A DNA stretch of 64,000 nt. Source: an uncultured bacterium (GTDB lineage: Bacteria > Patescibacteriota > Minisyncoccia > Phycocordibacterales > GWA1-40-21). The position numbers were made by a program, and so were the translations under genes. Positions 14,133-54,231 of this stretch are shown one piece after another. The stretch spans positions 116,530 through 180,529 of the forward strand of contig CAWJAN010000006.1 in assembly GCA_963840885.1 (NCBI GenBank). Direction: 5' to 3'. The notes under the pieces are model-generated. The model worked only from the letters and a program-made list of their open reading frames with translations. It was not told where the DNA came from and ran no database searches. How positions within the stretch are numbered: position 1 is the stretch's first letter; each line of letters begins with the position of its first letter.

Positions 14133-14188
14133 TAATAAACAAGGCATTTTTACGAATTTAGAGATTTTAGGTTATAATTATATTTGTA

Positions 14189-16673: not shown

Positions 16674-16706
16674 GAAAAACCCGTTACGGGTGATAAAATA
16701 TCATCA

Positions 16707-17474: not shown

Positions 17475-17475
17475 A

Positions 17476-18507: not shown

Positions 18508-18510
18508 ATT

Positions 18511-19782: not shown

Positions 19783-19806
19783 AACCGGATGATATCCGGT
19801 TTTATT
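19781..19806. terminator. bidirectional terminator
   Basis: aaaaccggat-gat-atccggtttt-att between convergent genes. Confidence 0.5.
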
Positions 19807-20272: not shown

Positions 20273-20281
20273 GACTCTTAT

Positions 20282-21025: not shown

Positions 21026-21065
21026 GGAACAATTCTATATGAAAACCGGTTTTTAGACAAACGAG

Positions 21066-21407
21066 CTATATTATTCCGCCTCTTTTAGCTATATCCTCTA
21101 TGTCTTTTTTTATGTCAGCCTGAGAAATCTCTTTTACGGATTTTTTTGAAAAAAATACGGCGGTTTTTACGAAACCGGGTTTTATTTTGTTCAAAAAACT
21201 TTCTATAACGGCGCTGGCCCGTCTTTTTATCAAATGCCTTCCGACTGAAGTCTTTTCGGTTTTCTTTGATACGATAATGGCAAATCCGGCTTTATTCAGG
21301 CTGTTTCCGGATATTTTTGCGTAAAAATAGTCTCCGGGAATATTCTTTCCGTTTTTTACAGCCGCTTCTATGTCTTTTCTTGAAGCTCTAAGTTTCTTTG
21401 CAAGCAT
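21066..21407 (-). CDS. rnpA: ribonuclease P protein component
   Basis: Position between rpmH and yidC; basic 113-aa protein with RnpA-like ..VGRHLIKRR.. segment. Confidence 0.8.
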   Translation of the reverse strand: MLAKKLRASRKDIEAAVKNGKNIPGDYFYAKISGNSLNKAGFAIIVSKKTEKTSVGRHLIKRRASAVIESFLNKIKPGFVKTAVFFSKKSVKEISQADIKKDIEDIAKRGGII

Positions 21408-21447
21408 ATTAAGAGATTATATAGCAAAAAGAGCCTTTCGGCTCCTT

Positions 21448-21582
21448 TTATACGCTTAATTTTCGCCTTCCTTTGCGCATTCTCCTTTTAAGGGTGTTTC
21501 TGCCGTATTTTGTTCTTTTCCTGACCAAAAAACCATGTGTCTTGGCTCTCTTTCTTTTCTTTGGCTGATATGTTTGTGACAT
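21448..21582 (-). CDS. rpmH: 50S ribosomal protein L34 (missed by ORF track, 44 aa)
   Basis: Reverse-complement translation [44 protein letters not shown]. Confidence 0.85.
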
Positions 21583-21771
21583 AAAAAGGAGTATAAATCA
21601 AAAAATATCTTTTGTAAAGTTCAAATTAAAAAAATTTCAGTCATAATTAAGTGCCCTGCCAAGCATATTCTCGGTTGCAGCGGAAACAAAAAACATTATC
21701 AACTTTTTATAAACAATTTGTTAACAAAAATTTATTTCTATTAACCGTTTTATAATTTTATAATCAAGCCT
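21583..21771. promoter_or_regulatory. divergent rpmH / dnaA promoter region, possible oriC part
   Basis: AT-rich; DnaA-box-like ttatcaact at 21696-21704. Confidence 0.35.
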
Positions 21772-23275: not shown

Positions 23276-24378
23276 ATGAAAATAGAGTGTGTGAAAGAAA
23301 AATTCCAATCAGCCATATCAAAAGCTGAAAAAATAGTTTCCAAAAATATAAACTTACCTGTATTATCATGTGTTTTTTTGGAAACAAAAGGAAGTAATCT
23401 TGTTATAAGGGCAACAAACCTTGATTTTGGTATAGAAACAACAATTCCGGTTAAAAAATATTCAGATGGAAAAATTTGCGTACCAGCCAATATATTAAGT
23501 TCTTTTCTAAATAATATTACAGATGATAATAATATCTCATTAGAGGAAAAAGACGGTCTCTTAAGGATTAAAACAGATAAAACTGAGGCGGAAATAAAAA
23601 CTTATTCCCCAGATGATTTTCCGACAATACCAACAATTGATGACGGTGTTGTTTGTAAAATATCTTCAAAAGACCTTCAAAACGGGATAAAATCAGTTTA
23701 TTACAGCTCATCAACCTCTAGTGTTAAGCCTGAGCTTGGCAACGAGTTTATATATATTCAAATGATGATAATTTAGTTTTTGTGGCAACCGACTCGTTCA
23801 GGCTTGCTGAAAAAACCATAAAAACCAAGAAAAAGGTAGTTTTACCAGGAATTCTAATTCCTCTTAAGAATGCCGCCGACATACTGAAGATAATAGATGG
23901 GACAGACGAAGAAATAGATATGAATTCTACAAAAAACCAAATGTCGCTGTCTTTTAACGGAATATATATGGTTTCACGGGTTGTAGATGGAATCTTTCCT
24001 GATTACAAGCAGATAATTCCAAAAGAAGAAAAAACAAAGGCCGTCCTATTAAAACAAGACCTTATCAATTCTTTAAAAATATCCAATATATTCTCAGATA
24101 ATTTCAACCAGGTGAATATTTCCGTCATCCCGTCTTCAAAAAAAATAGAGATAAAAACTAGAAATTCTAATATAGGAGAAAATACAAATAAAATAGACGC
24201 CAATATAGAAGGCGAAGAAATCGTGGTTAATTTCAATTACAGGTACATAGTAGATTGCATGGGTTCAATCCCGCAGGATAGCGTGTCTTTGGTTTTTAAT
24301 GGAATAAATAAGGCTCTGGTGGTAAGAGGGGCCACCGACAAGAGCTTCACGTACCTAGTAATGCCTATGAATAGATAA
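23276..24378 (+). CDS. dnaN: DNA polymerase III beta sliding clamp, interrupted by a single frameshift near 23755-23785
   Basis: First frame ends ..KPELGNEFIYIQMMII*; second frame continues NDDNLVFVATDSFRLAEK..., the canonical DnaN junction. Confidence 0.8.
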
Positions 24379-27285: not shown

Positions 27286-28491
27286 ATGAAAATCGATACG
27301 GATCTGAGTAAAATAGAGGATATTTTGACACGAAGCGTCCAGGCAATTTTGCCGTCCAAAGAACTTTTTAAAAAAGAGCTTTTGAGTGGTAAAAAATTAA
27401 AGATATATGTCGGCGCCGATGCGACAGGCGCAAAGCTGCATATAGGCCACGCTACAAATTTTATGATTCTTGAAAAATTGCGACAGCTTGGCCATGAAAT
27501 CATTATTTTATTTGGAGATTTTACTGCGCAGATAGGAGACCCAACTGGTAAAGAAAGCGAAAGAAAAAATTTGACAAAAAAAGAAGTCGAGCAGAATTTA
27601 AAGACATGGAAAAGCCAAGTGGGGAAAATTATTCCTCTCGGAAAGGAAGTAAAAATTGTCAAAAATAGCACATGGCTTTCAAAAATGAATTTTGCTGACG
27701 TGATAAACCTAGCATCCAATTTTACAGTTCAGCAGATGATAGAGCGCGACATGTTCCAGAAAAGATTAGAAGAAAAAAAGCCGATACACCTCCAGGAATT
27801 TTTTTATCCTTTGATGCAGGGGTATGACAGCGTGGCGCTTGATGTGGATGCAGAAATTGGCGGCAATGACCAGACATTCAATATGCTCATGGGCAGGACG
27901 CTTCAGAAAATAAAAAGAAACAAGGAAAAGTTTGTGATTGCAACAACTCTTCTCATAAATCCAAAAACAGGCAAAAAGCTAATGAATAAAAGCGAGGGAA
28001 TCATCATCGGTCTCGATGACGAATACAATGACATGTTCGGGAAAGTCATGGCATTACCAGATGAAGCCATTGTTTCTGTTTTTACTGACTGCACTTATGT
28101 TTCTATGCAAGAAATCGAAAAAATGAAAAAGGAACTGGAAAGCGGGACAAATCCACGAGATCTCAAGGTTAGATTGGCAAAGGAGATTGTCACTATCTAT
28201 CACGGAGCGGAAAAAGCCGGCAAAGCCGAGCAGAATTTCATAGAAACTTTTTCAAAAGGCGGCGTGCCGGAAGATATTGAGAAAATAAAAACGGAAAAAG
28301 GAAAATCATTAATGGAATTTCTTGTTGAAAACAAGATTGTGTCTTCAAAAAGCGATTTCAGGAGGCTCATTTCTGAGAATGCCATATCGGATGCCGTATT
28401 AGGCGAGAAAATAACCGATCCGAACTATAAAATAGAAAAAGAAATTTCCCTGAAAGTCGGAAAGAAAAGATTTGTTAAAATTACTCTATGA
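27286..28491 (+). CDS. tyrS: tyrosine--tRNA ligase
   Basis: HIGH-type motif KLHIGH, GDFTAQIGDPTGK, KMSKS-like KLMNKS, C-terminal S4-like domain. The upstream ORF start at 27196 overlaps the PBP gene and is rejected. Confidence 0.8.
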   Translation: MKIDTDLSKIEDILTRSVQAILPSKELFKKELLSGKKLKIYVGADATGAKLHIGHATNFMILEKLRQLGHEIIILFGDFTAQIGDPTGKESERKNLTKKEVEQNLKTWKSQVGKIIPLGKEVKIVKNSTWLSKMNFADVINLASNFTVQQMIERDMFQKRLEEKKPIHLQEFFYPLMQGYDSVALDVDAEIGGNDQTFNMLMGRTLQKIKRNKEKFVIATTLLINPKTGKKLMNKSEGIIIGLDDEYNDMFGKVMALPDEAIVSVFTDCTYVSMQEIEKMKKELESGTNPRDLKVRLAKEIVTIYHGAEKAGKAEQNFIETFSKGGVPEDIEKIKTEKGKSLMEFLVENKIVSSKSDFRRLISENAISDAVLGEKITDPNYKIEKEISLKVGKKRFVKITL

Positions 28492-28958
28492 GAATCATCG
28501 CCATCGATCCCGGATATGAACGCCTTGGAATCGCTGTTTTGGAAAAAGAAAAGGGAAAAGAAGAACTGATTTTTTCCGAGTGTTTTAAAACATCGGTGAA
28601 AATTGAACATGCAGAGAGATTGAAACTGATAGGACAGGAAATAGAAAAAATAATAAAAAAATATAAGCCCGAAACTATGGCAATCGAAACATTATTTTTT
28701 TCCAAAAATCAGAAAACTGCAATAAAAGTTTCCGAAACAAGAGGAGTAATTCTTTACGTCGCTTCAAAGAATGATCTTGATGTAAAAGAATTCATGCCGA
28801 ATCAGATAAAGATCGCGGTTACCGGTTATGGAGCAAGCGATAAGAAACAGATTACGGGAATGGTGAAAAAACTTATAAAAATAGAAAAGGATATCGAATA
28901 TGATGATGAGTATGATGCTATAGCCGTGGGCCTTACATACTTTGCAGTGAATAGATAA
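28488..28958 (+). CDS. ruvC: crossover junction endodeoxyribonuclease RuvC
   Basis: MRIIAIDPGYERLGIAV..., ..IETLFFSKNQKTAIKVSETRG.., C-terminal DAIAVGLTYF. Confidence 0.8.
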   Translation: MRIIAIDPGYERLGIAVLEKEKGKEELIFSECFKTSVKIEHAERLKLIGQEIEKIIKKYKPETMAIETLFFSKNQKTAIKVSETRGVILYVASKNDLDVKEFMPNQIKIAVTGYGASDKKQITGMVKKLIKIEKDIEYDDEYDAIAVGLTYFAVNR

Positions 28959-29926: not shown

Positions 29927-30412
29927 CTAGTTTTTCATTACCGCCAGCCATTCCTCGGGATATTCATCGACGGCTATACCAAGAGTTTTCGCGAAATTTC
30001 TTTCCCATGTTGCGCCTTTCGAGCTTTGCCAATCAGGGAGAAAGAATAGTTTACTGATTAAACCAGATTCAAAAATAGACTTATAAAAAAGCTCGAGTGT
30101 TGCCAGGTAGTAGCCGTCCACCATCAGATATTTATATGAAAGGCGTCGCATCGTTCCTTCAAAAGCCGCTTGATCAAAAACCTGTAAATCATGCTTGCTA
30201 GCGATTTTGATTGCTTCGCTTAAGCGAGCAAGGTTTTTTTCTATATCGCCGAGTCCTCCAGTAGAAACAGGACCGGCAATATATATGATAGGCTTGCCGG
30301 ATGCCCGCATTTCCTTAAGGATACTAATGCCTACTTCGGCGAGCTTTTCGAGCGTTTCCGCAGAATCGATTTCTATTTTATATTTTTTTAAGATGGGATT
30401 TATTTTTTCCAT
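29927..30412 (-). CDS. hypothetical protein
   Basis: 161-aa ORF; ..IIYIAGPVSTGG.. segment; no firm family assignment. Confidence 0.3.
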   Translation of the reverse strand: MEKINPILKKYKIEIDSAETLEKLAEVGISILKEMRASGKPIIYIAGPVSTGGLGDIEKNLARLSEAIKIASKHDLQVFDQAAFEGTMRRLSYKYLMVDGYYLATLELFYKSIFESGLISKLFFLPDWQSSKGATWERNFAKTLGIAVDEYPEEWLAVMKN

Positions 30413-30417
30413 ATGTG

Positions 30418-31468
30418 CTATAGCAACTTACTCGGATTTTTTTTGTTCAGATGCTTCCTAGCCCTGTCTGTAGTTGTCCTTCCGCGCGGCGTTCGTTCAA
30501 TAAATCCAAGCTGCAGGAGATATGGCTCATAAACATCTTCTATGGTGGCTTGCTCTTCGGAAAGGGCAGCGGCAAGAGTATTGAGGCCCGACTGGCCCGC
30601 CATTGAATTTATCTTCTATGATTTCAAGCATTGCGCTATCGGCGCTGTTTAATCCGAATTCATCTATACCGAGCATATCTATAGCTTCTTTCACGAGTTC
30701 TTCGGTAAGGTCTTTGTTTTCTGACTTGAGCCAAGATCACGACCTCTTTTCAGGAGATAATTGGCGGTTCGCGGAGTAGATCTGCTTCTTTTGGCTATTT
30801 CTTTTTTTGCCTGCTTCGTCCATTTTCACTCCGAGAATTTTTGCTGATCGTTCTATTATTTTTTCTATCTCTTCATCGGTATAAAATTCAAGTTTGAACA
30901 CTCCACCGGAAAATCGTGAGCGAAGCGGAGCGGAGAGCATTGCGACTCTTGTCGTCGCAGCGATCAAAGTAAATGGCGGAAGCTCGAGCTGAATCGTTCT
31001 TGCGACTTGGTCCTTTGCCTATAATTATATCAAGTGGCCTGATTCCATCGCAGGATATAGGACTTCTTCAATAGTTTTGTTCAGTCTATGGATTTCGTCT
31101 ATGAAAAGTATGTCGCCAGCCGAAAGATTCGTAAGTATGGAAGCGAGGTCGCCGACTTTTTCTATTGCCGGTCCGGAAGTGGTTTTTATCTGAGCTCCGA
31201 TTTCCTTTGCTATGAGATTTGCCAGAGTCGTCTTGCCTAGCCCGGGAGATCCATAAAAAAGAATATGCTCGGGCGGGTGATTCCTTTGACGGGCCGCCTC
31301 GAGCAGTATTTTAAGATTATCTTTTATGTTTTTCTGGCCTATATATTCGTTCCAGGATGAAGGCCTGAGCGTCTGGTCTAGAAATTTTACGTCGCCGTTT
31401 AAATGGCTATTTTCATCATTATTTTCGGTATTAGGAGCCTTTTTGTCATTTTTTCTTGACATATTCAT
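30418..31468 (-). pseudogene. ruvB: Holliday junction helicase RuvB, fragmented by multiple frameshifts
   Basis: N-terminal piece with Walker [12 protein letters not shown], Walker [11 protein letters not shown] (31025-31468); middle piece ..[17 protein letters not shown].. (30737-30967); C-terminal winged-helix piece (30418-30603). Confidence 0.7.
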
Positions 31469-31821: not shown

Positions 31822-33528
<1,707 letters not shown>

Positions 33529-42182: not shown

Positions 42183-42388
42183 TTTGTCTTTTTAGCCTCC
42201 TTCCGGGCCAGACCGGAAGATGCCGGAAATAGGCCTAAAATACAAGCTATATATTATTTTTTAAAAAAATTAGCTCGCCTCGAAGCGAACTGAATGTAAC
42301 ATCATATTATCAGATTGTCTTTTCTTGTCAATATTACTATAATATAGGCAGTCATCGGCAATTTTTTATTTAAATTATTTTTTATAGC

Positions 42389-45300
42389 ATGAAAAAAATC
42401 CTATCTATTTTTTTGGGCACGCTCTCGTTCTTCTCTTTGCTTGTCCCGGCATACGGACAGTCCGCCCCATCGTCTCCACCAACCAAATCTCCGGCAAAAT
42501 ATTCGCCATCGACTTCCACCATTAATATTCCAGCGCCTCTTTCCGATATTTCCATAAGTAATGTAAAGATAGTGTCCCAAAACGACAGGAACATATCATT
42601 GTCTTTCGATATATCTAACAATACTTTGTCCGTGCAACCGGGAATCAAATACGCGGTCCATCTTCTAAGCCTGGTTTCTTCAACATCAACGCAGATTTCA
42701 GATGAAAAAGTCTACAGTGATTCGTTTACCTTGGATAAGAATTCCACCTTGAGCAAGACGGTTAATTATACTATCCCTGATGCTCTGTCGGCCGGAACTT
42801 ATGAATTTTTTATTGAAGCGGGAATCAATACCGGTTTAACTCTGGCTTCCGCCTATTCGGACATCATAAGTGTTTCGCCGGGATCATCTGGCGTGCTGGA
42901 AATCGTTCCTGGCTCCTGCAATATTTCCGTGGAAGGGACCACAAGAAAAAGCGGGCCTTTGTTTGCCGCCATGTCTGATAGCATAACGGAAAAATGCCAG
43001 GTTATGAGTTCATATCCAGATGGCACGGAATTTTATCCTAAATTTGAAACAAGGTTACACAATCTTTTCGGCGATTTTGCATCTACTACCGGCGGCTCTT
43101 CAGATCCGATATCTCTTAAAAACGGATTAAACGATATAACACTTTCTTTACCAAAAGGAACCGTGCCTAATGATTATTATGTCACTCTTAACCTTCAATC
43201 ATCGGATGGAAAAATAATCTCAAATTCCGATTCCTACACATATTTTTTGGAAGGATTGACCGGCCAGATAGAGAGCGCAGTTTTCAATGAGCCCGAGTAT
43301 AAATCAGGAGATGAGGCCGGTATTTTGGTAAATACCCTTGTTTATGATCTAGGATCATCTTCAAATGCGAGCGGAACGCTTGCCGTTTCAGTCAGTGATG
43401 GATCAGGAAATTTGTGCGGCACGACATCGGACCAGGAAGTTTCATTGTCCGTTCCGACTTCTGTTTTTTCCGTAAACATGGAAAGAGACTGCACAAATCC
43501 TTCGGCTCATATAGTGCTTTCCGCAAAGGATGAAAACGGAAATGAAGTGGTTCTTGATACTAAAGACTTCAATGTCATAACCCCGGCAAAATACATGGCA
43601 AATTACATCTGGTTATTGTTAGTCTTGTTGGCCATAGTAGCGCTTCTTATAATATTTTTCGTCTGGAGATCTCATAAAAATAAAATAATATCAGTTCCGC
43701 AATTGATGCTTGTGGCGGCAATACTGACCATTTCATTTTTTGGTTCAGCACACCATGCTTCCGCAATAAGCTGCTACCCTAATCCGGTAGATTCAACTGC
43801 AGGAAGCAATAGCGGAGGAAGCGGATATATTTTTTGCGAAAGTACCGAAGATCCCATCGGCATGGCTGATGCCAGCGGCAACGGCGCGGGACAGTATTTC
43901 AATTGGTCCGGGCGCAGCGTGTCTTATTACGGATTCGGAGGCGGATTTGTCACCTGGCCGAACAGAAATTTAAACGGCAATCTTTACCTTATTTGTGATG
44001 GAGGCGGAAAAAATTGTTTCAAAGAAACATACCTTGGAGGATATGGAGCTTTTGCAACTCAGGTATATATAACGGGAAATTCCACTCCGGATTACAATAC
44101 TCCGGCAAGCATTTCTTGGAATTCAAGAGGCGCTGGCTGGTGCGATATATGGCAGGACGGAGCCATGATTCATCAGAATGCAGGCACTTGGGGAACTGTT
44201 TCCACAAATCCGGTAATACAAAATTCAACGATCACTGTTTACTGCGGAGGATGGCCGCAGACAGGGCAAGCCAGCGTAACAGTCAGTCCCAAAGCTCTTC
44301 CGACAGCCACAATAAACGCTTCATCCACCCTTCTTGTTTATGGAACTCCCACTAATGTTTCCTGGACTTCGACTAGTGCCAATTCTTGCGTAATAACTGA
44401 TTCGGGTTTTGCCACCGGAATTACGGTCAATGGACAAAATACGTATGGAACCGGCGGGCAAGGCACGTCTGTAAGCGCAGGCAATAATATTCTTGCATGG
44501 TTTGGCACCGGATCAAATATTGTCTATCCAGGATACTCGGTAACCACTGATTACAATACCATGTCATATCTATCCCAATTCAGCCTGAGCAATATAAGTT
44601 CATATTCTTCCATCCCACAGGGAATATATATAGATTCTTCAAACAACAGCTATATTGCAGCCGGAGCCACTGTAGGCAAATATAATTCATCCGGAGCTTA
44701 TCAGTTTTCATTTCAAAACATTCCTTCTCAAGGCGGCGGAGGATACGGAGGAGGGGGCGGAGGCGGCACAAATACAAGTCCAACCTTTTATGACATAACC
44801 AAAGACAGTTCCGGAAATTTTTATGTTTCGGACCAGGCAAATTCTCAGATAGTGAAATTTGATCCTTCAGGAAATTATATCTCATTATTCGGAACATACG
44901 GATCAAGCACAGGAGAATTTATTAATCCTTCGGGACTAGCCTTTGATTCATCGGGAAATCTTTATGTGGCCGATACAGGAAACAACAGAGTTGAAAAATT
45001 CAACCTCAATAAACTTGGAGGATTCGGATATTTGAATGAATTCGGCTCCCAAGGCACCAGTAACGGAAAATTCAGCAACCTAACCTCAAGCGTCATGGCA
45101 ATAGACTCGAGCGGAAATGTCTACGTTACCGATCCGCAGAATTACCGCGTAGAGAAATTCGATCCGCTAGGACACTATTTATTATCATTCGGCTCCCAAG
45201 GCACCAGTAACGGAAAATTCAGCAACCTAACCTCAAGCGTCATGGCAATAGACTCGAGCGGAAATGTCTACGTTACCGATCCGCAGAATTACCGCGTAGA

Positions 45301-47539
45301 GAAATTCGATCCGCTAGGACACTATTTATTATCATTCGGCTCCCAAGGCACCAGTAACGGAAAATTCAGCAACCTAACCTCAAGCGTCATGGCAATAGAC
45401 TCGAGCGGAAATGTCTACGTTACCGATCCGCAGAATTACCGCGTAGAGAAATTCGATCCGCTAGGACACTATTTATTATCATTCGGCTCCCAAGGCACCA
45501 GTAACGGAAAATTCAGCAACCTAACCTCAAGCGTCATGGCAATAGACTCGAGCGGAAATGTCTACGTTACCGATCCGCAGAATTACCGCGTAGAGAAATT
45601 CGATCCATTTGGAAATTATCTGCTCAAATTCGGCTCTTCAGGCTCCGGCAACGGCCAGTTTTCAAATCTGACCTCAAACGTCATGGCAATAGACTCGAGC
45701 GGAAATGTCTACGTTACCGATCCGCAGAATTACCGCGTGGAGAAATTCAGTTCTTCGGGAGCTTATCTTGCTTCTTTCGGTTCAAGCGGCTCCGGCAACG
45801 GCCAGTTCTCAAATATGTCCAATGTTTCCATGGCTATCGATTCATATAATTACATATATATTACCGATCCGCAGAATTACCGAGTCGAAGTGTTCGATTC
45901 AAACGGAAATTATTTTTCCCAATTCGGCTCTTCAGGAACAGGCAACGGCCAGTTCTCCAATATGTCCAATGTTTTCATGGTTGAAGATCCATCCGCAACT
46001 GGTTCTTCATATACGAATGGAGCGGTTTATATCACCGATCCGCAGAATTACCGCGTAGAGAAATTCGGTCCAAACGGACCGGGATTCGTTTCTCAGCTTG
46101 GCGGCTCTGTTACCACCTGTTCTTTTAAAATAGGCAATACCTGCAAAAGCTATACTACAACAAGCATTTTTAATAGGCCAAGAAATCTTGCCATCGATTC
46201 TTCAGGAAATATTTATGTTGCGGACAATGCAGGGTTGCAGAAATTCGATTCTTCATACAATAAGCTTCCATTCAGCTACAGCCAAACAGGACTTAAGGGC
46301 ATAAGCCTTGATTCATCCGGCAATGTATATGTTTCAAACACCACGAATGATAATATATTGAAGATAAATTCCGCAGGCACTCTTATAGGACAAGGCGGCT
46401 CAGGCGGTTCAGGAAACGGGCAATTCAACAATCCTATAGGAATTAAATTGGATTCCTCAGGAAATATTGATGTGGTCGATTCCAACAATAATCGGGTTGA
46501 AAAATTTGTTCCATATACGGTAAACACCACTTATTATGCAAACGGCTCGACATCAACCGGACCGGTTGATCACGATACTACATTCAACCTTTCTTGCATC
46601 GGCAATGGCGGAGGATCTATCGCTACTTCAAGCGTAATAGTTCACGTCCAGCCCGGCGTAAGATTGACCGCACCATATCAGGTAAATCAAGGAGATGATG
46701 TCCATCTTTCATGGGATTCCCAGGGAGTAAGTTCTTGTTTTGCTTCCGGAGACTGGTCAGGCGATAATGCCACCACTGGAAGCGTTCCTACAACTAGCGC
46801 GGATTATGCAGTGCCGACAAGCAAGACATATTATTATCCTATGAATTTCTACATAACCTGTTTCAGCCCTTCCGGAGTCATCACAGGAGCTTCGGCGCAT
46901 ACCGACATGATTTCTGAATGCCCTAATAATCTTATAAAGGCCAGCGCTCCAGTGATATCAAGCTGCACTGCCGCATCGGTCAATCTGAGCTGGGCCGCAG
47001 TTTCTGATTCAAACGACATAATGTACTTCAATATTTACGGCGATGATCCGACGAATTTTCTGGCCAGCACTTCGGCGCAAACTTATACCGTGAAGAATAT
47101 CCCCGTTACCGATAGCAGCTCGACACATACATTTTATGTCGAGGCTGTAAGCGGTGATTCAGATATTATAGCGACAAGCACCGCAAGCGTGCAGGTAGTC
47201 ATTCCGCCTCAAGATCCTTCTTGTCTGCCGCCATCTTCATCGTCAACTCTTTCTTGCAGCGCAATGCAAAACGGCATTGCCACAAGCACGGTATATCTTA
47301 ATAAAACCATGAGCTGGCAGGCCAATATCAGCACTTCTACGGACAAAATAGTCTGGTTCGGAACTAATATATCGTCATCCGGCGACACCACTGTGGGCAC
47401 GACATACAGTAAGATTTATACGACCATAGGAAACAAGGAAGTAAGGGCTTATGCGTATAAAGGAGGTAAGGTAATAGCTTCATGCGCCACAAGCACAATC
47501 AATGTAGTATCTGCGGGAGGAGGCGGAGGAGAAATTTAA
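42389..47539 (+). CDS. giant secreted/surface protein: NHL-repeat beta-propeller array plus Cys-containing Ig-like domains, internal TM-like segment
   Basis: Signal peptide; more than 12 NHL-like repeats (..AIDSSGNVYVTDPQNYRVEKFDP..); poly-Gly tract; C-terminal Ig-like ..LSWDSQGVSSC.. domains. Confidence 0.7.
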   Translation: MKKILSIFLGTLSFFSLLVPAYGQSAPSSPPTKSPAKYSPSTSTINIPAPLSDISISNVKIVSQNDRNISLSFDISNNTLSVQPGIKYAVHLLSLVSSTSTQISDEKVYSDSFTLDKNSTLSKTVNYTIPDALSAGTYEFFIEAGINTGLTLASAYSDIISVSPGSSGVLEIVPGSCNISVEGTTRKSGPLFAAMSDSITEKCQVMSSYPDGTEFYPKFETRLHNLFGDFASTTGGSSDPISLKNGLNDITLSLPKGTVPNDYYVTLNLQSSDGKIISNSDSYTYFLEGLTGQIESAVFNEPEYKSGDEAGILVNTLVYDLGSSSNASGTLAVSVSDGSGNLCGTTSDQEVSLSVPTSVFSVNMERDCTNPSAHIVLSAKDENGNEVVLDTKDFNVITPAKYMANYIWLLLVLLAIVALLIIFFVWRSHKNKIISVPQLMLVAAILTISFFGSAHHASAISCYPNPVDSTAGSNSGGSGYIFCESTEDPIGMADASGNGAGQYFNWSGRSVSYYGFGGGFVTWPNRNLNGNLYLICDGGGKNCFKETYLGGYGAFATQVYITGNSTPDYNTPASISWNSRGAGWCDIWQDGAMIHQNAGTWGTVSTNPVIQNSTITVYCGGWPQTGQASVTVSPKALPTATINASSTLLVYGTPTNVSWTSTSANSCVITDSGFATGITVNGQNTYGTGGQGTSVSAGNNILAWFGTGSNIVYPGYSVTTDYNTMSYLSQFSLSNISSYSSIPQGIYIDSSNNSYIAAGATVGKYNSSGAYQFSFQNIPSQGGGGYGGGGGGGTNTSPTFYDITKDSSGNFYVSDQANSQIVKFDPSGNYISLFGTYGSSTGEFINPSGLAFDSSGNLYVADTGNNRVEKFNLNKLGGFGYLNEFGSQGTSNGKFSNLTSSVMAIDSSGNVYVTDPQNYRVEKFDPLGHYLLSFGSQGTSNGKFSNLTSSVMAIDSSGNVYVTDPQNYRVEKFDPLGHYLLSFGSQGTSNGKFSNLTSSVMAIDSSGNVYVTDPQNYRVEKFDPLGHYLLSFGSQGTSNGKFSNLTSSVMAIDSSGNVYVTDPQNYRVEKFDPFGNYLLKFGSSGSGNGQFSNLTSNVMAIDSSGNVYVTDPQNYRVEKFSSSGAYLASFGSSGSGNGQFSNMSNVSMAIDSYNYIYITDPQNYRVEVFDSNGNYFSQFGSSGTGNGQFSNMSNVFMVEDPSATGSSYTNGAVYITDPQNYRVEKFGPNGPGFVSQLGGSVTTCSFKIGNTCKSYTTTSIFNRPRNLAIDSSGNIYVADNAGLQKFDSSYNKLPFSYSQTGLKGISLDSSGNVYVSNTTNDNILKINSAGTLIGQGGSGGSGNGQFNNPIGIKLDSSGNIDVVDSNNNRVEKFVPYTVNTTYYANGSTSTGPVDHDTTFNLSCIGNGGGSIATSSVIVHVQPGVRLTAPYQVNQGDDVHLSWDSQGVSSCFASGDWSGDNATTGSVPTTSADYAVPTSKTYYYPMNFYITCFSPSGVITGASAHTDMISECPNNLIKASAPVISSCTAASVNLSWAAVSDSNDIMYFNIYGDDPTNFLASTSAQTYTVKNIPVTDSSSTHTFYVEAVSGDSDIIATSTASVQVVIPPQDPSCLPPSSSSTLSCSAMQNGIATSTVYLNKTMSWQANISTSTDKIVWFGTNISSSGDTTVGTTYSKIYTTIGNKEVRAYAYKGGKVIASCATSTINVVSAGGGGGEI
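45041..45628 (+). repeat. four perfect tandem copies of a 147-bp (49-aa NHL) unit, flanked by diverged copies
   Basis: Unit starting ttcggctcccaaggcaccagtaacgg at 45041, 45188, 45335 and 45482; copies appear identical. Confidence 0.8.
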
Positions 47540-47567: not shown

Positions 47568-48632
47568 ATGAAAAATAATTTTTTTAAAAATTTCATCCTC
47601 GCGGTTTCATCAGTAGCTCTTACAGTATTTGGATTTGCAGGAACATCGTTTGCCCATTCATGCAGCCCGTCTCCATCCGGAAACGGTTCGGGATGCTATA
47701 CATATTGCGCTGACGGAGGAAATCAGCCGGTTGTCAGAAATAGCGCTGCCAATACCGTATCTACAGCAAGCTTCAGGGATGGATCTGGCAATTGGGCTGT
47801 AGCTCCTCAAAACGGACTTAGCCAAGGCGTCTATTATATAGGGGATTCCGGCAGTACCGGCGGAAGTCATATATTTGGCGGAGGTTACGGCTGCTATTCG
47901 CCATCGATTTCTTTAAATCTTTCAAACAACAATCCATCATATAATACTCCGGTGACAGTTTCATGGAGTTCACAAGGAGTTTCTTCTTGCACGGTTAATG
48001 GAGGCGGAAATAGCTGGTCTGGAACTTCCGGCAGCCAGTCATCAGGAAATCTTACCCAGACGACGACATTCACTCTTTCATGTTCTGGTTCTGCTGGTTC
48101 ACCATCGCAATCTCAAACCGCCACAATTTCTTCTCCTCCGATGGTGTCGCTTTCAGCTTCGCCGTCGCTTATAAACTTAGGCGACAGCTCCACTCTTTCT
48201 TGGACAATAAGTGGCGCCACATCTTGCACACAATCCAGCACTCTTGGAAACTGGACTCTTTCATCACCTTCAAGCGGATCGATGACACTAAACAATATAC
48301 AAAGCGCCCAGTCATTTTCTCTCACTTGCACTAATAGCAATGGAAATTCTTCAGCATCGGCGTCGATAAACGTTAAGACAAATCTGTATGCGAATCCTTA
48401 CAGGCTTACTTATGGCGGTTCAACATTCCTTAATTGGATATCTGCCTTTGGAAATACCTGCACCGTTTCCGGCGGCGGTTTGAATATAACAGCTTCATCA
48501 ACAGGTAGCTATTTCAAGTACAATCTGACAAGAAATACCAAATTCAGCATCTCATGCACCGACACAAACGGTTTCAATAGCACATCTTTCATGAATGTCG
48601 GCATAACGCCAAGATTTTCCTGCCAATCATAG
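47568..48632 (+). CDS. secreted protein of repeated Cys-containing Ig-like domains (hypothetical)
   Basis: Signal peptide; repeats ..VSWSSQGVSSCTVNGGG.. and ..LSWTISGATSCTQSS.. homologous to the C-terminus of the upstream giant protein. Confidence 0.45.
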   Translation: MKNNFFKNFILAVSSVALTVFGFAGTSFAHSCSPSPSGNGSGCYTYCADGGNQPVVRNSAANTVSTASFRDGSGNWAVAPQNGLSQGVYYIGDSGSTGGSHIFGGGYGCYSPSISLNLSNNNPSYNTPVTVSWSSQGVSSCTVNGGGNSWSGTSGSQSSGNLTQTTTFTLSCSGSAGSPSQSQTATISSPPMVSLSASPSLINLGDSSTLSWTISGATSCTQSSTLGNWTLSSPSSGSMTLNNIQSAQSFSLTCTNSNGNSSASASINVKTNLYANPYRLTYGGSTFLNWISAFGNTCTVSGGGLNITASSTGSYFKYNLTRNTKFSISCTDTNGFNSTSFMNVGITPRFSCQS

Positions 48633-48646
48633 GGTAAAACATAAAA

Positions 48647-48684
48647 AGCCGGCCGCGCGGGAAGCGCAGGCCGGCTTTTATTTT
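48647..48684 (+). terminator. rho-independent terminator
   Basis: gccggcc-gcgcgggaagcgca-ggccggc + ttttatttt. Confidence 0.55.
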
Positions 48685-48726
48685 GAGTTTTCGGCTGGTA
48701 TAATTACCTACAGTTTATTTAATCGT

Positions 48727-50484
48727 ATGCTTCTTGATAAAAAACAACTCAAAGATTTTCTCATAGATTCAGGCCTCGTTACGAGGTCTGAATATGATGA
48801 GATTGAAAGGGATATAAAAACAGGCAAAACAAAGGATTCTCCGGAGAATGTTTTTGTGTCTCAGGGAAAAATTTCTGAAGATGACCTTCGAAGGGCCAAG
48901 GCTTACATTCTGGGAATCCCCTTTATAGATTTAAAGATGCAGAAAATAGATCCGGAAATACTCTCTTTGATTCCGGAACCAATAGCGAGAAAAAATAACA
49001 TAGTGGCTTTCAGGAAAAATCCGGACTCTCTGGAAGTAGCCATGCTAGATACCCAGGATCTCTCATCGATAGAATTCATAAAGAAGAAAGTCGGATTGAA
49101 AATTCTTCCGCGCCTTACCGATGTCGAATCGATAAAAAGCGCTTTATTGCAGTATCAAAAAAGCTTGAAGGCAGAATTCGGAGATATTATCAAGGAGGAC
49201 GTCATGGCTCTTAAAAACTCCCCGCTAAATGAAGGCGAGACCAGCAATAATACCGATTTGAAAAAGATGGCCGAGGATTTGCCGGTAGTCCGCATCGTAG
49301 AGACATTGCTCAAGCATGCCGTTTTGCAAAATGCTTCCGATATACATATCGAACCTCTGGAGAAAGATCTTCTAGTAAGATACAGGATAGACGGCATATT
49401 GCATGACGCAATGATTTTGCCGAAAAATGCCGCACCATCCATAGTCGCCAGGATAAAAATATTATCCAATCTTAAATTAGACGAGAAACGCCTTCCGCAA
49501 GACGGAAGATTCAGCATAGACCTGAATGGAGAAAAGATTTCTTTCAGGGTTTCAACTATTCCGACTTATTTCGGTGAAAAAACAGTTTTAAGGGTCCTTA
49601 AGGATAATGTCGGCGCCTTTACGCTTGAGTCTATGGGATTTCACGGCGTCAGCCTTGAAAGAATCCACGAAGCCCTGAGAAAGCCAAATGGAATGATTTT
49701 GACGACAGGCCCGACAGGAAGCGGAAAGACAACGACTCTTTATGCGATGATAGAAATTCTGAATACTCCTGGAGTGAATATTTCAACCATTGAAGATCCT
49801 ATAGAGTATCAGATGCAGAGAGTGAATCAGACACAGGTCAAACCGGAAATAGGATTTACATTTGCGAACGGCTTAAGGTCGCTTGTCAGGCAGGATCCGG
49901 ACATTATAATGGTCGGAGAAATAAGAGACAATGAAACCGCTTCTCTTGCCGTTAATGCCGCGCTTACAGGACACCTTGTCCTTTCGACTCTGCATACAAA
50001 TTCTGCAGCCGGCGCGGTGCCCAGGCTTATTGATATGAAGATAGAGCCGTTTCTTCTGGTTTCGACCATAAATGTAGTGATGGCTCAAAGGCTGATAAGG
50101 AAACTTACAAGGGAAAAAGAGAAATATTATCTTTCCAAATCAGAACTCGCTTCGCTGTCGAAAATAGTCGACATGGACAAAGTTTTGGAAACTTTGAAAT
50201 CTGAAAACATAATAAGCAAGGATGATTCCTGGGAAAAAATCCCATTTTATAAGACGAAGCCTTCCGAAGAGTCGAAAGACGGATATATCGGAAGAATAGG
50301 GATACACGAGGTTTTGAAAATAAGCCCGGCAATCAAGGATCTTATAATATCTGGCGGAGAATCAGATAAAATAAACGAGCAGGCGAAGAAGGAAGGAATG
50401 CTCGGAATGCTCGAAGACGGCATATTTAAGTGTGTTACAGGGATGACGACCGTTGAAGAAGTGCTGAGAGTCGTCAGCGAATAA
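48727..50484 (+). CDS. type IV pilus/T2SS ATPase PilB/GspE family (second copy, lacks C-terminal tetracysteine motif)
   Basis: GspE-N-like N-terminus, Walker A GPTGSGKTTT, Asp/His boxes; no CxxC...CxxC. Confidence 0.85.
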   Translation: MLLDKKQLKDFLIDSGLVTRSEYDEIERDIKTGKTKDSPENVFVSQGKISEDDLRRAKAYILGIPFIDLKMQKIDPEILSLIPEPIARKNNIVAFRKNPDSLEVAMLDTQDLSSIEFIKKKVGLKILPRLTDVESIKSALLQYQKSLKAEFGDIIKEDVMALKNSPLNEGETSNNTDLKKMAEDLPVVRIVETLLKHAVLQNASDIHIEPLEKDLLVRYRIDGILHDAMILPKNAAPSIVARIKILSNLKLDEKRLPQDGRFSIDLNGEKISFRVSTIPTYFGEKTVLRVLKDNVGAFTLESMGFHGVSLERIHEALRKPNGMILTTGPTGSGKTTTLYAMIEILNTPGVNISTIEDPIEYQMQRVNQTQVKPEIGFTFANGLRSLVRQDPDIIMVGEIRDNETASLAVNAALTGHLVLSTLHTNSAAGAVPRLIDMKIEPFLLVSTINVVMAQRLIRKLTREKEKYYLSKSELASLSKIVDMDKVLETLKSENIISKDDSWEKIPFYKTKPSEESKDGYIGRIGIHEVLKISPAIKDLIISGGESDKINEQAKKEGMLGMLEDGIFKCVTGMTTVEEVLRVVSE

Positions 50485-50519
50485 TCATATCAATAAATAT
50501 ATTAAAATTTATAATCCTG

Positions 50520-51734
50520 ATGAAATTCTCATTTAATGCCGTAAATCAAAAAGGCGAAAGATATAAGGGTGTAAGGGATTCCACGAATAAATTCACCCTT
50601 TATGATGAGCTAAAATCGGAAGGCGATAATTTGATATCGGCTGTAAGCATTGATGCAAAACAACCATGGTATCTTTCAGCCATCTCTTTTTTTTCAAAAG
50701 TTCCTGAAATACAGAAAATAATTTTTGCAAAAAATCTAGGCGCCATGATAGAAGCCGGCCTTCCAATATCAAAAAGCCTCGATGTCATAAACAGGCAGCT
50801 TAAGAATAAATATTTTAAAGGCGCCGTTTCTTCGATTGAAGAAGAAATGAGAGGAGGAAAAACTTTAAGCGAATCACTCTCGATGTACGGCAATATTTTT
50901 TCAAATCTTTTTACTTCCATGGTCAAGGCCGGGGAGGAGTCCGGCAAGCTGTCTGATTCCCTGAAGATCATAGGAACACAGATGGAGCAAAGCTATAATT
51001 TGAAAAGGAAAATAAAGGGAGCGATGATTTATCCGGCAATAATCCTATCTCTTACGGTTATAATAGGTGTTCTTATGATGATTTTTGTCATTCCGTCCAT
51101 AACAGCCACGTTTACGGACCTGAATGTTGAGCTTCCTCTTGCCACTAAAATACTAATATATACCAGTAATCTATTTAAAAACGACATATTCATAATATTG
51201 CTCGCAGCAGCAGTTCTGTTTGCGGCATCTTATTTTTTTGCAAAATCAAAAATCGGAAAAAACTTTTTTGATTTTTTGTTTCTTAAAACGCCGATCGTAG
51301 GCGAATTGATAAAAGAGACGAATGCCGCGAGGCTTTCAAGGACGCTGTCATCGCTTCTCAGTTCCGGAGTTCCTTATGCAGAATCTATAAAAATAACCGA
51401 GAATATAATAGAAAATCATTATTTCAAGAATCTTTTGAAGGAATCAAGGGCAAAAGTTGAAAAAGGAGAAACTGTATCAAGCGTTTTTTTGAGTAATGAA
51501 AAATTAACCCCTCCTTTTATCGGTGAAATGATTGCTGTAGGCGAAGAAACCGGGCGCTTGCCGTCTATGCTTCTTGAAGTAGCGGAGTATTATGAGCTTT
51601 CGGTCGAACAGAAAACCAAAGATATGTCCACAATAATTGAGCCTTTTCTTATGATAATAATCGGTGTCGCCGTTGGATTCTTTGCCTTTTCCATAATAAA
51701 GCCGATCTATTCTTTGACTTCGGCAATAAATTAA
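50520..51734 (+). CDS. pilC: type IV pilus inner-membrane platform protein PilC/GspF
   Basis: Two GspF repeats; ..IEPFLMIIIGVAVGFFAFSIIKPIY C-terminus. Confidence 0.85.
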   Translation: MKFSFNAVNQKGERYKGVRDSTNKFTLYDELKSEGDNLISAVSIDAKQPWYLSAISFFSKVPEIQKIIFAKNLGAMIEAGLPISKSLDVINRQLKNKYFKGAVSSIEEEMRGGKTLSESLSMYGNIFSNLFTSMVKAGEESGKLSDSLKIIGTQMEQSYNLKRKIKGAMIYPAIILSLTVIIGVLMMIFVIPSITATFTDLNVELPLATKILIYTSNLFKNDIFIILLAAAVLFAASYFFAKSKIGKNFFDFLFLKTPIVGELIKETNAARLSRTLSSLLSSGVPYAESIKITENIIENHYFKNLLKESRAKVEKGETVSSVFLSNEKLTPPFIGEMIAVGEETGRLPSMLLEVAEYYELSVEQKTKDMSTIIEPFLMIIIGVAVGFFAFSIIKPIYSLTSAIN

Positions 51735-51781
51735 AAATTTTCATCATAAGTTGCGGTTCGAATGATATATCAGTATAAATA

Positions 51782-53608
51782 ATGCTTTCAAGCTATTTTA
51801 AAAGAAATAATAGTCCAGAAATAAACATAAGCCTTAAAAGCAATCACGGCTTTACTCTGATTGAAATTCTGGTAGGCGTTGCGGTTTTTTCGGCGATTGT
51901 CATATCTGTTTACGGGGCTTTCGCTCTTATAGAAAAGACCGTTATTATTTCTAAAACCAGAATCGCAATGACAGATATAGGAAGGGAACAGCTTGAAATA
52001 ATAAGGAACCTTTCATATTCTAATGTAGGCATTATCGGCGGATTGCCGGCCGGTAAAATTATCCGAGATAAGACCGTGACGAGAAGCGGAATTAATTTTG
52101 ACGTCCTGACAACAGTGAGGGGAGTCACAGATCCGTCCTCAACGCATCTATATTCTGATTACAAGCTTGTTGAGCTCGATATTTCCTGTGAAAATGGCTG
52201 TTCAGTGCCGACAGAAAGTTTTTCCACCATCGTTTCGGCTAATGGGCTGATAGTTTCAACCACTACCGGAGCAATAGTCGTAAGAGCACTTGATTCCGGC
52301 GGAAATCCGGTAGAAGGAGCAAATATAACAGTCAATAACAATTCGAGCACATCGCCAATTTTGGTCAATGATACGACAGATAAATATGGAAACCTTGAAA
52401 TCATAGATGTTCCGCCGGGAGTGAATAATTATTCAGTATCAATACAAAAAGACAGCTATTCTTCCGATAGAACCTATCCTCCCGGAGGATCAGGGAATCC
52501 AAATCCGATAAATCCCGATGCTACGGTTGTTGCTGGCAATACCACCCAGCTGTCTTTCCTGATAGATAAAGTAAGTTCCATAAATTTTTCAACTCTTACC
52601 GATACCTGCTCTCCTGTACCGGATATAGGATTTTCTCTGTCGGGCACAAAACTCATCGGAACATCGCCTGATGTACTCAAATACAGCCAAAATTTTTCAA
52701 GCGGTGGTTCCGGGATTAAGAATGTAAACAATCTTGAATGGGACGTTTATAATACTTCCGTATCTGATCCGAATTATGTTCTTGCCGGTACAATTCCGCT
52801 CTTGCCGCTCAATCTTTTACCTGATACTTCCCAGAATTTTGATTTTATCCTTGAACCAAAGAATCCAAAGCAGCTTCTTATTACCGTAGATGATTCTCAA
52901 AACGGCTTGCCGATTACCGGCGCCGATGTTGAGATCACCGATTCCCACGGGACTTCCACGACGCTTACCACAGGAAGAGGTTTTCTTGGGCAAAACGACT
53001 GGACGGGAGGAGACGGTCAGGAGCAATTTATTGATCCGACAAAATATTCCACTTCTACAAACATAGACAATTCTGATTCTTTGATAGGAATAAAGCTTTC
53101 AACTACGACAGTCTCAACTTCCACAACCGGATACTATGCGACAGGCACTCTTATTTCTTCCACATACGATACCGGAGCTCCTAGCAATTTTTACGAGATA
53201 ACATGGCTTCCCCAGAGCGAACCGCCGGAAACAGGATCATCCTCTGTGGAATTCCAAATAGCCTCGAACAATGACGATTCCACTTGGAATTTTTCCGGCC
53301 CGGACGGAACAGAAAGCACTTTTTACACGCTTTCGGACGGAAATATAAATTCTATAAATAACGGAAACAGGTATTTCAGATATAAAGTATTTTTAAGCAC
53401 GGATGACGACCAGTTTTCTCCGGTCCTTTCGAGCCTTTCTCTGACTTTTTCTTCTTCTTGCGTGCCGCCCGGACAAGTCCTTTTCAGCAATCTGAATTCA
53501 GGCTCTTATGATCTTTCCGTTTCCAAATCCGGATATCAGGATTATAGCGGAACGGTCAGCGTATCGTCTGACTGGCAGCAAAGCCAGATCCCATTATCAT
53601 CAGAATGA
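51782..53608 (+). CDS. prepilin-type N-terminal cleavage/methylation domain protein (large pilin-like)
   Basis: Class III signal HGFTLIEILVGVAVFSAIVIS. Confidence 0.6.
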   Translation: MLSSYFKRNNSPEINISLKSNHGFTLIEILVGVAVFSAIVISVYGAFALIEKTVIISKTRIAMTDIGREQLEIIRNLSYSNVGIIGGLPAGKIIRDKTVTRSGINFDVLTTVRGVTDPSSTHLYSDYKLVELDISCENGCSVPTESFSTIVSANGLIVSTTTGAIVVRALDSGGNPVEGANITVNNNSSTSPILVNDTTDKYGNLEIIDVPPGVNNYSVSIQKDSYSSDRTYPPGGSGNPNPINPDATVVAGNTTQLSFLIDKVSSINFSTLTDTCSPVPDIGFSLSGTKLIGTSPDVLKYSQNFSSGGSGIKNVNNLEWDVYNTSVSDPNYVLAGTIPLLPLNLLPDTSQNFDFILEPKNPKQLLITVDDSQNGLPITGADVEITDSHGTSTTLTTGRGFLGQNDWTGGDGQEQFIDPTKYSTSTNIDNSDSLIGIKLSTTTVSTSTTGYYATGTLISSTYDTGAPSNFYEITWLPQSEPPETGSSSVEFQIASNNDDSTWNFSGPDGTESTFYTLSDGNINSINNGNRYFRYKVFLSTDDDQFSPVLSSLSLTFSSSCVPPGQVLFSNLNSGSYDLSVSKSGYQDYSGTVSVSSDWQQSQIPLSSE

Positions 53609-54231
53609 TTAATTTAAAGCCAAAAAATAATAAGAGCAGAGAAGGATTTACCCTCATCGAAACGCTAGTCGCTCTCGGCATATTCCTGTTTGTCATGATT
53701 GAGCTTGGAAATTTCGCCAGAAGCATTTTCAACTACAATTCGATTATCCAAAACAGTTCTGTCGCTGAAGATGAGGCAAAACAGACTTTGGAGAAAATGG
53801 CTTCAGAAATGCGCTCAATGTATTCTTCCGATACAGGCTCATATGCCATAGGAGATGCGGGCACTTCCACGATAACTTTTTACAGCGATATTAATAATGA
53901 CGGCAAAAGAGAAAGAATAAGATATTTCCTTTCTGGCACTACATTGGAAAAAGGGATAACGGTTTCTACGGGCAGTCCTCTCTCATATGATTCAGCGAAT
54001 GAGACTTTTTCCGAAGCCATACACAATGTCAATAATTCACAAAGCCCAATATTCGAATATTTCGATGGAAATTACGACGGTTCGGAACCGCCTCTTTCAC
54101 AGCCGGTTAATATTTCTTCCGTAAGGCATATTAAGATTACGCTTAACATTGTAATGAATAATTTCGGGGCAACTTCCTCAATTTCCTTTTCCACAGACGT
54201 AACTCCGAGAAATTTAAAAGATAATCTATGA
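53605..54231 (+). CDS. prepilin-type minor pilin
   Basis: REGFTLIETLVALGIFLFVMI; 4-nt overlap with upstream gene. Confidence 0.6.
   Translation: MINLKPKNNKSREGFTLIETLVALGIFLFVMIELGNFARSIFNYNSIIQNSSVAEDEAKQTLEKMASEMRSMYSSDTGSYAIGDAGTSTITFYSDINNDGKRERIRYFLSGTTLEKGITVSTGSPLSYDSANETFSEAIHNVNNSQSPIFEYFDGNYDGSEPPLSQPVNISSVRHIKITLNIVMNNFGATSSISFSTDVTPRNLKDNL

Follow-up and report, generated by a model that had tools for sequence, protein, structure and literature searches.

A predicted Patescibacteria surface protein with recently amplified NHL beta-propeller blades, encoded near type IV pilus-like genes

A 64,000-nt stretch of DNA from an uncultured Patescibacteria bacterium (contig CAWJAN010000006.1; the whole stretch is hereafter referred to as the window) carries, on its + strand at 42389–47539, an open reading frame (ORF) with an ATG start that encodes a modular cell-surface protein of 1716 aa. 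This gene raises the question of how such a protein has come to contain tandem 147-bp repeats identical down to the nucleotide, whether their number can be trusted, and what the protein may do on the outside of the cell. An earlier note on this DNA had described an NHL-repeat surface protein of that length; the ORF was confirmed by its translation and by homologues, and the reading of the product as Sec-exported and surface-exposed gained support. As a whole, the locus is fairly probably best explained by a modular surface protein, Sec-exported and membrane-associated, from a Patescibacteria (Paceibacterota-like) bacterium, in which an ancestral scaffold with one six-bladed NHL propeller would have been enlarged by the in-place amplification of a single 147-bp (49-codon) blade, either through unequal homologous recombination or through replication slippage between neighbouring blades. 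The amplification would have led to seven related blades, its last rounds leaving three identical units and a fourth that is identical over 125 nt, and the propeller faces would provide an enlarged extracellular ligand-binding surface for attachment to host cells or substrates. All of the features of this gene, its candidate promoter and the genes downstream that are given below lie on the + strand.

Tandem Repeats Finder detected a period of 147 with 4.8 copies and 95% matches at 45040–45748, and a separate repeat search returned the same register. A direct count of mismatches to the unit at 45041 gave 0 for the units at 45188 and 45335, 11 for the unit at 45482, and 33, 60 and 93 for the next 3′ units (45629, 45776 and 45923, respectively). 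Exact period-147 identity extends over 45040–45606, that is, 567 nt or 3.86 units (three complete units and 126 nt). Four base-perfect units had been reported previously; those at 45041, 45188 and 45335 are indeed identical, but the fourth is so only partially, as the unit at 45482 is identical over 125 of 147 nt while 11 of its last 22 nt differ (DPLGHYLLS becomes DPFGNYLLK), and the number of perfect units is three in any register, not four. Similarly, the flanking copies described as progressively diverged are found on the 3′ side only; on the 5′ side, the array adjoins an NHL blade unrelated to it. The repeat array is far beyond chance, and no further occurrence of the 147-bp unit was found across the rest of the window.

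The fifth unit (45629) is chimeric. Its nt 1–45 are 67% identical to unit 1 and 82–84% identical to units 6 and 7, while nt 46–125 are 94% identical to unit 1 and only 60–69% identical to units 6 and 7, which indicates recombination within the array. The proportion of synonymous differences (pS) from unit 1 climbs from 0 through 0.19 and 0.43 to 0.77 along the array, and its nonsynonymous counterpart (pN) gives a pN/pS of about 0.2–0.4; therefore, the blades are under purifying selection, and diversifying selection was rejected on the same values. Since the perfect units are identical at all synonymous sites, very recent duplication or gene conversion is implied, in agreement with the earlier suggestion of very recent expansion or gene conversion, to which the chimeric unit adds intra-array recombination. 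As far as can be read from the sequence, the pattern appears to be what repeated rounds of unequal recombination, slippage or conversion leave behind under purifying selection, with the latest duplication events seemingly too recent for even one substitution to accumulate. The G + C content at third codon positions is higher in the amplified blades (0.53 at 45041–46093) than in the remaining ORF (0.40). A foreign origin of the blades was rejected as an explanation of this excess because a few codon sets are effectively counted several times; it is probably a small-sample effect of repeatedly counting one unit.

The amplified units are part of an NHL beta-propeller region with 13 blades (44591–46522, aa 735–1378), which was delimited by Pfam NHL, SBBP and SGL matches, by a blade hidden Markov model (HMM), and by an AlphaFold2 model. 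The match of this region to Pfam NHL (PF01436; E-value, 3e-41; 137.9 bits against a curated cutoff of 20) confirms the domain assignment proposed earlier, and the overlapping Pfam matches are to SBBP, SGL and six-bladed-propeller families. The HMM built from the repeat units located all of the 13 blades within aa 735–1378. AlphaFold2 predicted regular four-strand blades at a mean predicted local distance difference test score (pLDDT) of 76, and the top Foldseek matches in the PDB were the NHL domains of Thin, TRIM71 and TRIM2 (E-values, 1e-23 to 1e-17; 28–34% identity). The likeness to TRIM-NHL proteins lies in these family and fold matches; those proteins have single six-bladed, intracellular, RNA- or protein-binding domains in eukaryotes, whereas the 13 blades found here belong to a bacterial protein and are predicted to be extracellular. 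In the blade score matrix, b4–b10 (aa 885–1235) cluster apart from the other six blades, and similarity declines steadily from b4–b6 through b7, b8 and b9 to b10, with the youngest blades at the 5′ end. Blades b4–b7 are 94–100% identical, b8–b10 are graded, and six divergent NHL blades flank them. Based on the blade HMM, nucleotide comparison and the score matrix, b4–b10 (45041–46093; seven units of the pattern FGSxGxxNGxFSN...TDPQNYRVEKF) constitute one recently amplified, mosaic sub-lineage. The poly-Gly tract noticed earlier is present as the Gly-rich sequence GGGGYGGGGGGG between blades 1 and 2 (44732–44767, aa 782–793), where pLDDT is low in the model.

According to the literature, locally repetitive beta-propellers contain a few internal blades up to 100% identical, also in DNA, within a more divergent propeller, and such blades are interpreted as very recent single-blade amplification (Pereira & Lupas 2022, PMC9218822). 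Blade numbers in these proteins lean towards what is usual in the family without being fixed; for one array of 15 blades a 7 + 8 fold is predicted, and it is explicitly warned that identical blades leave assembled copy numbers uncertain (PMC9218822). The b4–b10 array consists, as in that class, of consecutive blades more than 60% identical beside non-repetitive blades of the same family; it represents a locally repetitive beta-propeller, and the repeat phenomenon as such is already described. The present case differs in the approximate doubling of a six-blade NHL module within a membrane-associated surface protein and in its clear chimeric unit, and neither "NHL" nor "Patescibacteria" was found in a text search of PMC9218822. 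With the chimeric unit and with relatives in the six-blade starting state, the gene is a clean example of propeller growth by blade amplification, although an example and not a discovery.

The starting state is seen in the relatives. The nearest full-architecture orthologue (P0029 at locus L005, from a Patescibacteria metagenome-assembled genome (MAG)) is colinear with residues 31–1007 at 40% identity and has six blades, as does each of two scaffold relatives (L004a and L009), while P0002 has the same scaffold without the NHL insert and aligns to residues 24–673 and 1386–1687. Other family members have 6 + 6, 12 contiguous or 6 + 12 + 6 (24) blades. The maximum blade-to-blade identity in any of the other members is 83%, and never 100%, so blade amplification seems to recur in the family, with the present protein as its freshest case. 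The 1716-aa protein was not found by an exact-sequence look-up, a 34-nt repeat core had 0 exact matches in metagenome contigs, and homology searches of the protein found no homologue above about 45% identity.

Several observations weigh against the reading of a binding propeller enlarged in place. Every clean array in the relatives is a multiple of six, which 13 blades are not, and identical units could be miscounted in assembly. The window contains frameshifted dnaN, ruvB and virB4-like genes, which cast some doubt on the base-level quality of the assembly and call for care with claims at that level. The AlphaFold2 model superposes only poorly on six-bladed NHL domains (root mean square deviation, 7–8 Å; TM-score, about 0.59), which makes any split of the 13 blades into closed rings tentative. 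In addition, NHL-type propellers also occur as enzymes, and some of the homologues are labelled lactonase or lyase by their sources.

It is possible, albeit unlikely, that the copy number, and perhaps also the perfect identity, is a product of assembly and that the gene in reality contains either two identical units or four. Two would be the more plausible number, resulting in 12 blades and two canonical six-bladed NHL propellers. The exactly periodic 567-nt tract exceeds short reads and typical inserts; every copy number stays in frame at 49 codons per unit, and the intact ORF is therefore no check on it; the relatives have 6, 6 + 6, 12 or 24 blades against 13 here; the frameshifts elsewhere in the window point to an imperfect consensus; and the same assembly caveat for nucleotide-identical blades is voiced by Pereira and Lupas (PMC9218822). 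On the other hand, the window is contiguous through the array, which suggests that the assembler resolved it, and the diverged units 4–7 prove that the array itself is real. Seven-bladed propellers exist in related families, which also counts against such an explanation. Off-norm blade numbers are documented in recently amplified propellers, e.g., the 15 blades as 7 + 8 (PMC9218822), and by this precedent the 13 blades may be genuine. The departure from multiples of six may thus reflect one assembled unit too many or a very recent extra duplication, and the count is unfit for modelling or annotation before it is confirmed by spanning reads.

The earlier note had regarded the copy number as probably variable, or collapsed or expanded by the assembler. 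The assembled count is indeed untrustworthy, given 13 blades against 6, 12 and 24 in relatives, but the case for variability is weaker than for rod-like adhesins because blades cannot be freely added to a propeller that is closed. Gram-positive surface proteins of the Rib/alpha C and SasG/Aap types carry nucleotide-identical tandem domain repeats that are hard to assemble and often polymorphic; in Rib/SasG-type proteins each repeat folds independently, like a bead along a rod, which leaves the copy number free, whereas propeller blades must close a ring. The present protein is like them in having in-frame, domain-sized, base-identical repeats in an exposed protein, and unlike them in having neither a Rib or G5 domain nor an LPXTG anchor. 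The gene might still be a contingency locus, at which identical blades are often gained and lost, so that the surface protein differs within the population in its antigenic or host-range properties, as in Rib/alpha C-type adhesins. The exposed, in-frame, domain-sized identical repeats, the evidence of intra-array recombination, and the position of the gene as the fastest-evolving one at its locus (35–43% identity against 70–84% for PilB and NusA) would fit such a role. It is nevertheless improbable: blades that close a toroid cannot behave as independent beads, the blade numbers of relatives stay at multiples of six, pN/pS is below 1 with no sign of diversifying selection, and identical blades occur in no other family member.

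The scaffold that carries the propeller is the more interesting part of the protein, as it defines an unannotated family. The family was found by an exhaustive search of cluster representatives (E ≤ 1e-3); a word-indexed search with the full protein was swamped by NHL proteins, and one with the first 680 aa gave only 4 matches. The N-terminal domain (N-domain) occurs in 893 cluster representatives, always at the N-terminus, in proteins of about 400 to 2849 aa, and it has no match among Pfam and NCBIfam models. The general plan of the family comprises a signal peptide, three beta-sandwich domains, a first transmembrane segment (TM1), a Lys/Arg-rich loop, a second segment resembling a type I signal peptide (TM2), and a variable ectodomain. 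In the present protein, a Sec signal peptide (42389–42457, aa 1–23) with an MKK start and a hydrophobic core, and with a presumed cleavage site AYG/Q, was recognised from the sequence and from equivalent N-termini of the homologues. It is followed by the family-defining N-terminal ectodomain (42521–43588, aa 45–400), identified by the family search, AlphaFold2 and Foldseek; it contains four cysteines that are invariant in the family, and its model is all-beta (pLDDT, 88.7) with three beta-sandwich domains. Foldseek matched it to FnIII, macroglobulin and RbmA-type domains, a resemblance of a generic kind only.

TM1 (IWLLLVLLAIVALLIIFFVW; 43607–43666, aa 407–426) is a putative stop-transfer anchor of the N-terminal module, since short family members end just beyond it. 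Then come the basic loop RSHKNK (43667–43684), predicted to be cytoplasmic, and TM2 (43685–43765, aa 433–459), which appears to be a retained internal signal peptide with an h-region and the sequence HASA/ISC. Out of 153 representatives examined, 34 stop right after TM1 and a basic tail, and the other 119 extend further; 117 of these 119 long members have a second hydrophobic segment, preceded by a short loop whose median is 11 aa with 4 Lys/Arg. TM2 carries a strict A-x-A motif at its end in 62% of cases compared with 8.3% of control windows (7.5-fold), and the HASAISC motif is identical in P0002. The internal hydrophobic segment pointed out in the earlier note is therefore present at aa 407–426, but it is no oddity, being the first half of a family-wide TM1/basic loop/TM2 hairpin. 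A chance fusion or missed stop between two genes was rejected because of the hairpin in the long members and the HASAISC motif common to P0002. TM2 was also considered as a lipoprotein signal and rejected: SAISC fits only loosely, and relatives with AKA/DTF, VWA/TDC and SFA/HSC do not conserve Cys at +1. No LPXTG anchor was found at the C-terminus, which is hydrophilic (...VVSAGGGGGEI), and a sortase-anchored protein was rejected on both counts.

In the topology that we infer, both of the large parts are outside and the basic loop is inside. Cleavage by signal peptidase after Ala459 (HASA/ISC) is plausible and would expose the neo-N-terminal peptide ISCYPNPVDSTAGSNSGGSGYIFCESTEDPIGMADASGNGAGQYFNWSGR. 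Two distant family loci bear on how this arrangement may have arisen. In L010, the short form (ending RHKKNQNES at its stop codon) overlaps by 11 nt (9325–9335) a separate gene starting MNLKNFKILLFVVAFLILLPAGSAKA/DSF, and the TM2 equivalent is the signal peptide of this separate downstream gene. In L012 (9200–9360), the anchor and the secreted parts lie one frame apart in a Lys-coding, A-rich stretch. The long proteins therefore look like fusions of a stalk gene with a gene for a secreted protein in which the second signal peptide was kept, and the fused and split forms, being one frame apart, could interconvert easily. A 1-nt indel would fuse both parts at the split loci, which may reflect sequencing error, gene fission or a switchable junction. 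The scaffold thus appears, from its conserved segments, to couple a membrane-anchored Ig-like (immunoglobulin-like) stalk to a variable secreted module via a retained internal signal peptide.

Taken further, the family may be a two-in-one export device peculiar to Patescibacteria, built by repeated fusion of stalk and secreted-protein genes via a Lys-rich loop: the product would be threaded twice by Sec and cut after the A-x-A motif (residue 459), yielding in stoichiometric amounts an anchored stalk and a free NHL ectodomain that docks back, perhaps via the C-terminal domain described below. This proposal is put forward tentatively, as one that we hold to be somewhat unlikely in its entirety. 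If true, the design of stalk and secreted module would open a way to learn how the contact surface of these uncultivated, ultrasmall bacteria is built and diversified.

Beyond TM2, the ectodomain consists of a Cys-rich domain, Ig-like domains, the 13 NHL blades, Ig/FnIII-like domains and a C-terminal domain of about 100 aa. The Cys-rich and first Ig-like domains (43766–44590), with a W..S..C motif, are 46–48% identical to P0002 and to the L005 orthologue and have paralogous counterparts in the adjacent ORF354. The C-terminal Ig-like/FnIII-like region (46523–47221) aligns to residues 692–900 of P0002, resembles ORF354, and has a weak match to the GH85_C beta-sandwich. The C-terminal Ig-like domains claimed previously are supported by sequence pattern and paralogy, but not by any Pfam match above the cutoff, and PDB sequence searches with the Cys-rich and C-terminal regions returned nothing meaningful. 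The last part of the protein (47222–47536) is a conserved domain of about 100 aa ending ...GGGGGEI, here called the -EI domain, which is recognised by an orthologue-built HMM with an E-value of 1.7e-25. The same HMM matches the extreme C-terminus of 30 out of 173 retrieved proteins and of every syntenic orthologue, and it also finds the domain in small ORFs of the same loci. Distant N-domain members (P0076–P0165) end in W-[KR]-E-V-x-P, e.g., NWKEVAP or GWREVSPN, not in -EI. The endings suggest two classes of C-terminal recognition elements.

ORF354 (47568–48632) follows and, by comparison with the large protein, is a secreted paralogue of its post-TM2 part, with a signal peptide (SFA/HSC), a Cys-rich start and three Ig-like W..S..C domains; it lacks the -EI domain. 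Having its own signal peptide and similar domains, it supports the reading of the long proteins as fusions of stalk and secreted-protein genes.

The gene is preceded by the divergent nusA and followed by ORF354 and by type IV pilus-like genes at 48727–54231, which encode a PilB ATPase (T2SSE; E-value, 1.8e-119), a PilC platform protein (T2SSF; E-value, 3.9e-56) and two prepilin-type proteins (N_methyl). Beyond the pilus genes are a 472-aa ORF, an AI-2E-family transporter and a class I aminoacyl-tRNA synthetase. A candidate sigma-70-like promoter (TTGTCT-17-TATAAT; 42315–42343) is present in the intergenic region between nusA and the surface gene, identified by no other feature than 10 of 12 consensus matches. 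Downstream of ORF354, an intrinsic terminator hairpin (48644–48684; −28.8 kcal/mol; z = −4.8; none of 200 shuffles as stable) is followed by UUUUAUUUU, and an extended −10-like box TGGTATAAT (48695–48705), recognised by consensus resemblance only, is located 22 nt upstream of the pilB start. The hairpin is bidirectional-looking, and the pilus genes probably have their own promoter. The gene had been placed directly upstream of a type IV pilus (T4P) operon; it is near (pilB starts at 48727), but the 354-aa ORF, the strong terminator and the extended −10-like box intervene.

Related loci were sought by a genome scan with a 4-sequence alignment. The order NusA, family gene or genes, and PilB-PilC-pilins is kept in at least six related MAGs assigned to Patescibacteria or Candidatus Paceibacterota (L001, L003/L004, L005, L006, L007 and L008). 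In one clade the family gene is always found next to pilus genes, on which cultivated Patescibacteria depend for living on a host. Across the syntenic loci, NusA is 80–84% and PilB 70–77% identical, while the N-domain of the surface protein is only 35–43% identical. The surface gene thus appears to be the fast-evolving element of a conserved neighbourhood, as would be expected for an exposed interaction protein. One or two family genes are found per genome at the syntenic site. Two tandem family paralogues are present in L004 (3705–12224) and in L006 (1–7409); those of L004 are an NHL-bearing protein of 1438 aa followed by one of 1307 aa without NHL. Judging from such loci, the site seems to gain and lose whole genes as well as blades.

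This neighbourhood suggests that the protein might act with the adjacent type IV pilus machinery, either as a pilus-associated adhesin like PilY1 or as a substrate that the pilus-like system pushes across the envelope. Besides the conserved gene order, such a role would accord with the essential part that T4P and several adhesins play in the growth of epibiotic Saccharibacteria (PMC10633639, PMC11665869), and with the common C-terminal -EI domain that marks several proteins of these loci. We consider it rather unlikely, however. The 1716-aa protein has no Pfam match to the prepilin N_methyl motif, which two ORFs further downstream (51782 and 53605) do contain, and its identity as a type IV pilin or pseudopilin was rejected accordingly; membership in the PilY1/PilC tip adhesins was rejected as well, as no such Pfam family was matched at E ≤ 0.1. 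The gene is set apart from pilB by ORF354 as well as by the strong terminator and the promoter-like box, and the distant family members L010 and L012 are not adjacent to T4P genes. The syntenic genomes are close relatives, as the NusA identities indicate; synteny may be shared ancestry only and is therefore by itself no proof of functional coupling. As an analogy only, the protein resembles PilY1/PilC tip adhesins in its large size, its beta-propeller, the position of its gene next to pilus genes and the adhesive role proposed for it, and it differs from them in having no PilY1 domain, in lying outside a minor-pilin operon with a terminator of its own, and in belonging to a different propeller family.

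What the protein does is most likely extracellular adhesion or ligand binding, as judged from its secretion signals, its Ig-like spacers, a propeller family known for ligand binding, its rapid divergence, and the way in which cultivated Patescibacteria live. The latter cannot grow on hosts without pili, a type IV secretion system (T4SS)-like system and several adhesins (PMC10633639, PMC11665869); for associating with their hosts, Patescibacteria such as the epibiotic Saccharibacteria rely on T4P together with a T4SS-like system and a number of large surface proteins (Wang et al. 2023, PMC10633639). The present window likewise contains T4P and T4SS-like genes, although it belongs to a different class of Patescibacteria and no homology to the characterised adhesins is claimed; a role in host attachment, for which the earlier note had named the protein a candidate, is plausible but putative. 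An improbable alternative is that the NHL region is not an adhesin but an extracellular enzyme or sensor, lactonase/lyase-like or PknD-like. It draws on the Pfam SGL (gluconolactonase-like) match (E-value, 1.2e-14), on homologues named "sugar lactone lactonase YvrE" or "streptogramin lyase" by their sources, and on ScyF as the best NCBIfam match. The enzyme names are automatic transfers between NHL-type propellers, however, and 13 amplified blades among Ig-like domains would be typical of binding modules. Membership in ScyF (NF035926, NHL PEP-CTERM protein) was rejected, the score of 299.9 bits being below the equivalog cutoff of 350.

Elsewhere in the window (1–64000), both a tRNA scan and an Rfam scan at the gathering threshold were empty. 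The dnaN gene (beta clamp) is split into two frames, with the N-terminal domain at 23276–23776 and the central and C-terminal domains at 23782–24378, and the shift lies near TTTATATATATT; an indel error in the consensus could account for it, or else this essential gene is truly frameshifted. In ruvB (about 30400–31468, − strand), at least four frame changes were found, one of them at an A7 run near 30805 and two as compensating indels within about 45 nt near 31030, while the neighbouring ruvC (28488–28958) and DUF4406 genes are intact. The clustered lesions of ruvB suggest a decaying pseudogene or a locally poor consensus. The frameshifts in dnaN, ruvB and virB4 were rejected as proof of a long-read origin because the ruvB lesions are clustered and not all at homopolymers, and decay is equally possible.

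A conjugation/T4SS-like cluster extends over 7589–19782. It includes a PrgI-family protein (13701–14132), a T4SS-pilin-like protein (17476–18507) and a VirB4/TraC-like ATPase split across two frames (14838–15830 and 15893–16462), as well as two large ORFs without a Pfam match (8397–10733, 778 aa, and 10759–12909, 716 aa). The region at 19802–23106, with jag/khpB-like and yidC genes on the − strand and dnaA on the + strand, is a probable chromosomal origin region; the GC content falls to 0.33–0.36 around 20–24 kb. Finally, a second PilB/T2SSE-type ATPase (568 aa; E-value, 7e-119) is encoded on the − strand at 31822–33528, apart from the pilB at 48727, and the genome may thus encode two pilus-like systems, as reported for Saccharibacteria.

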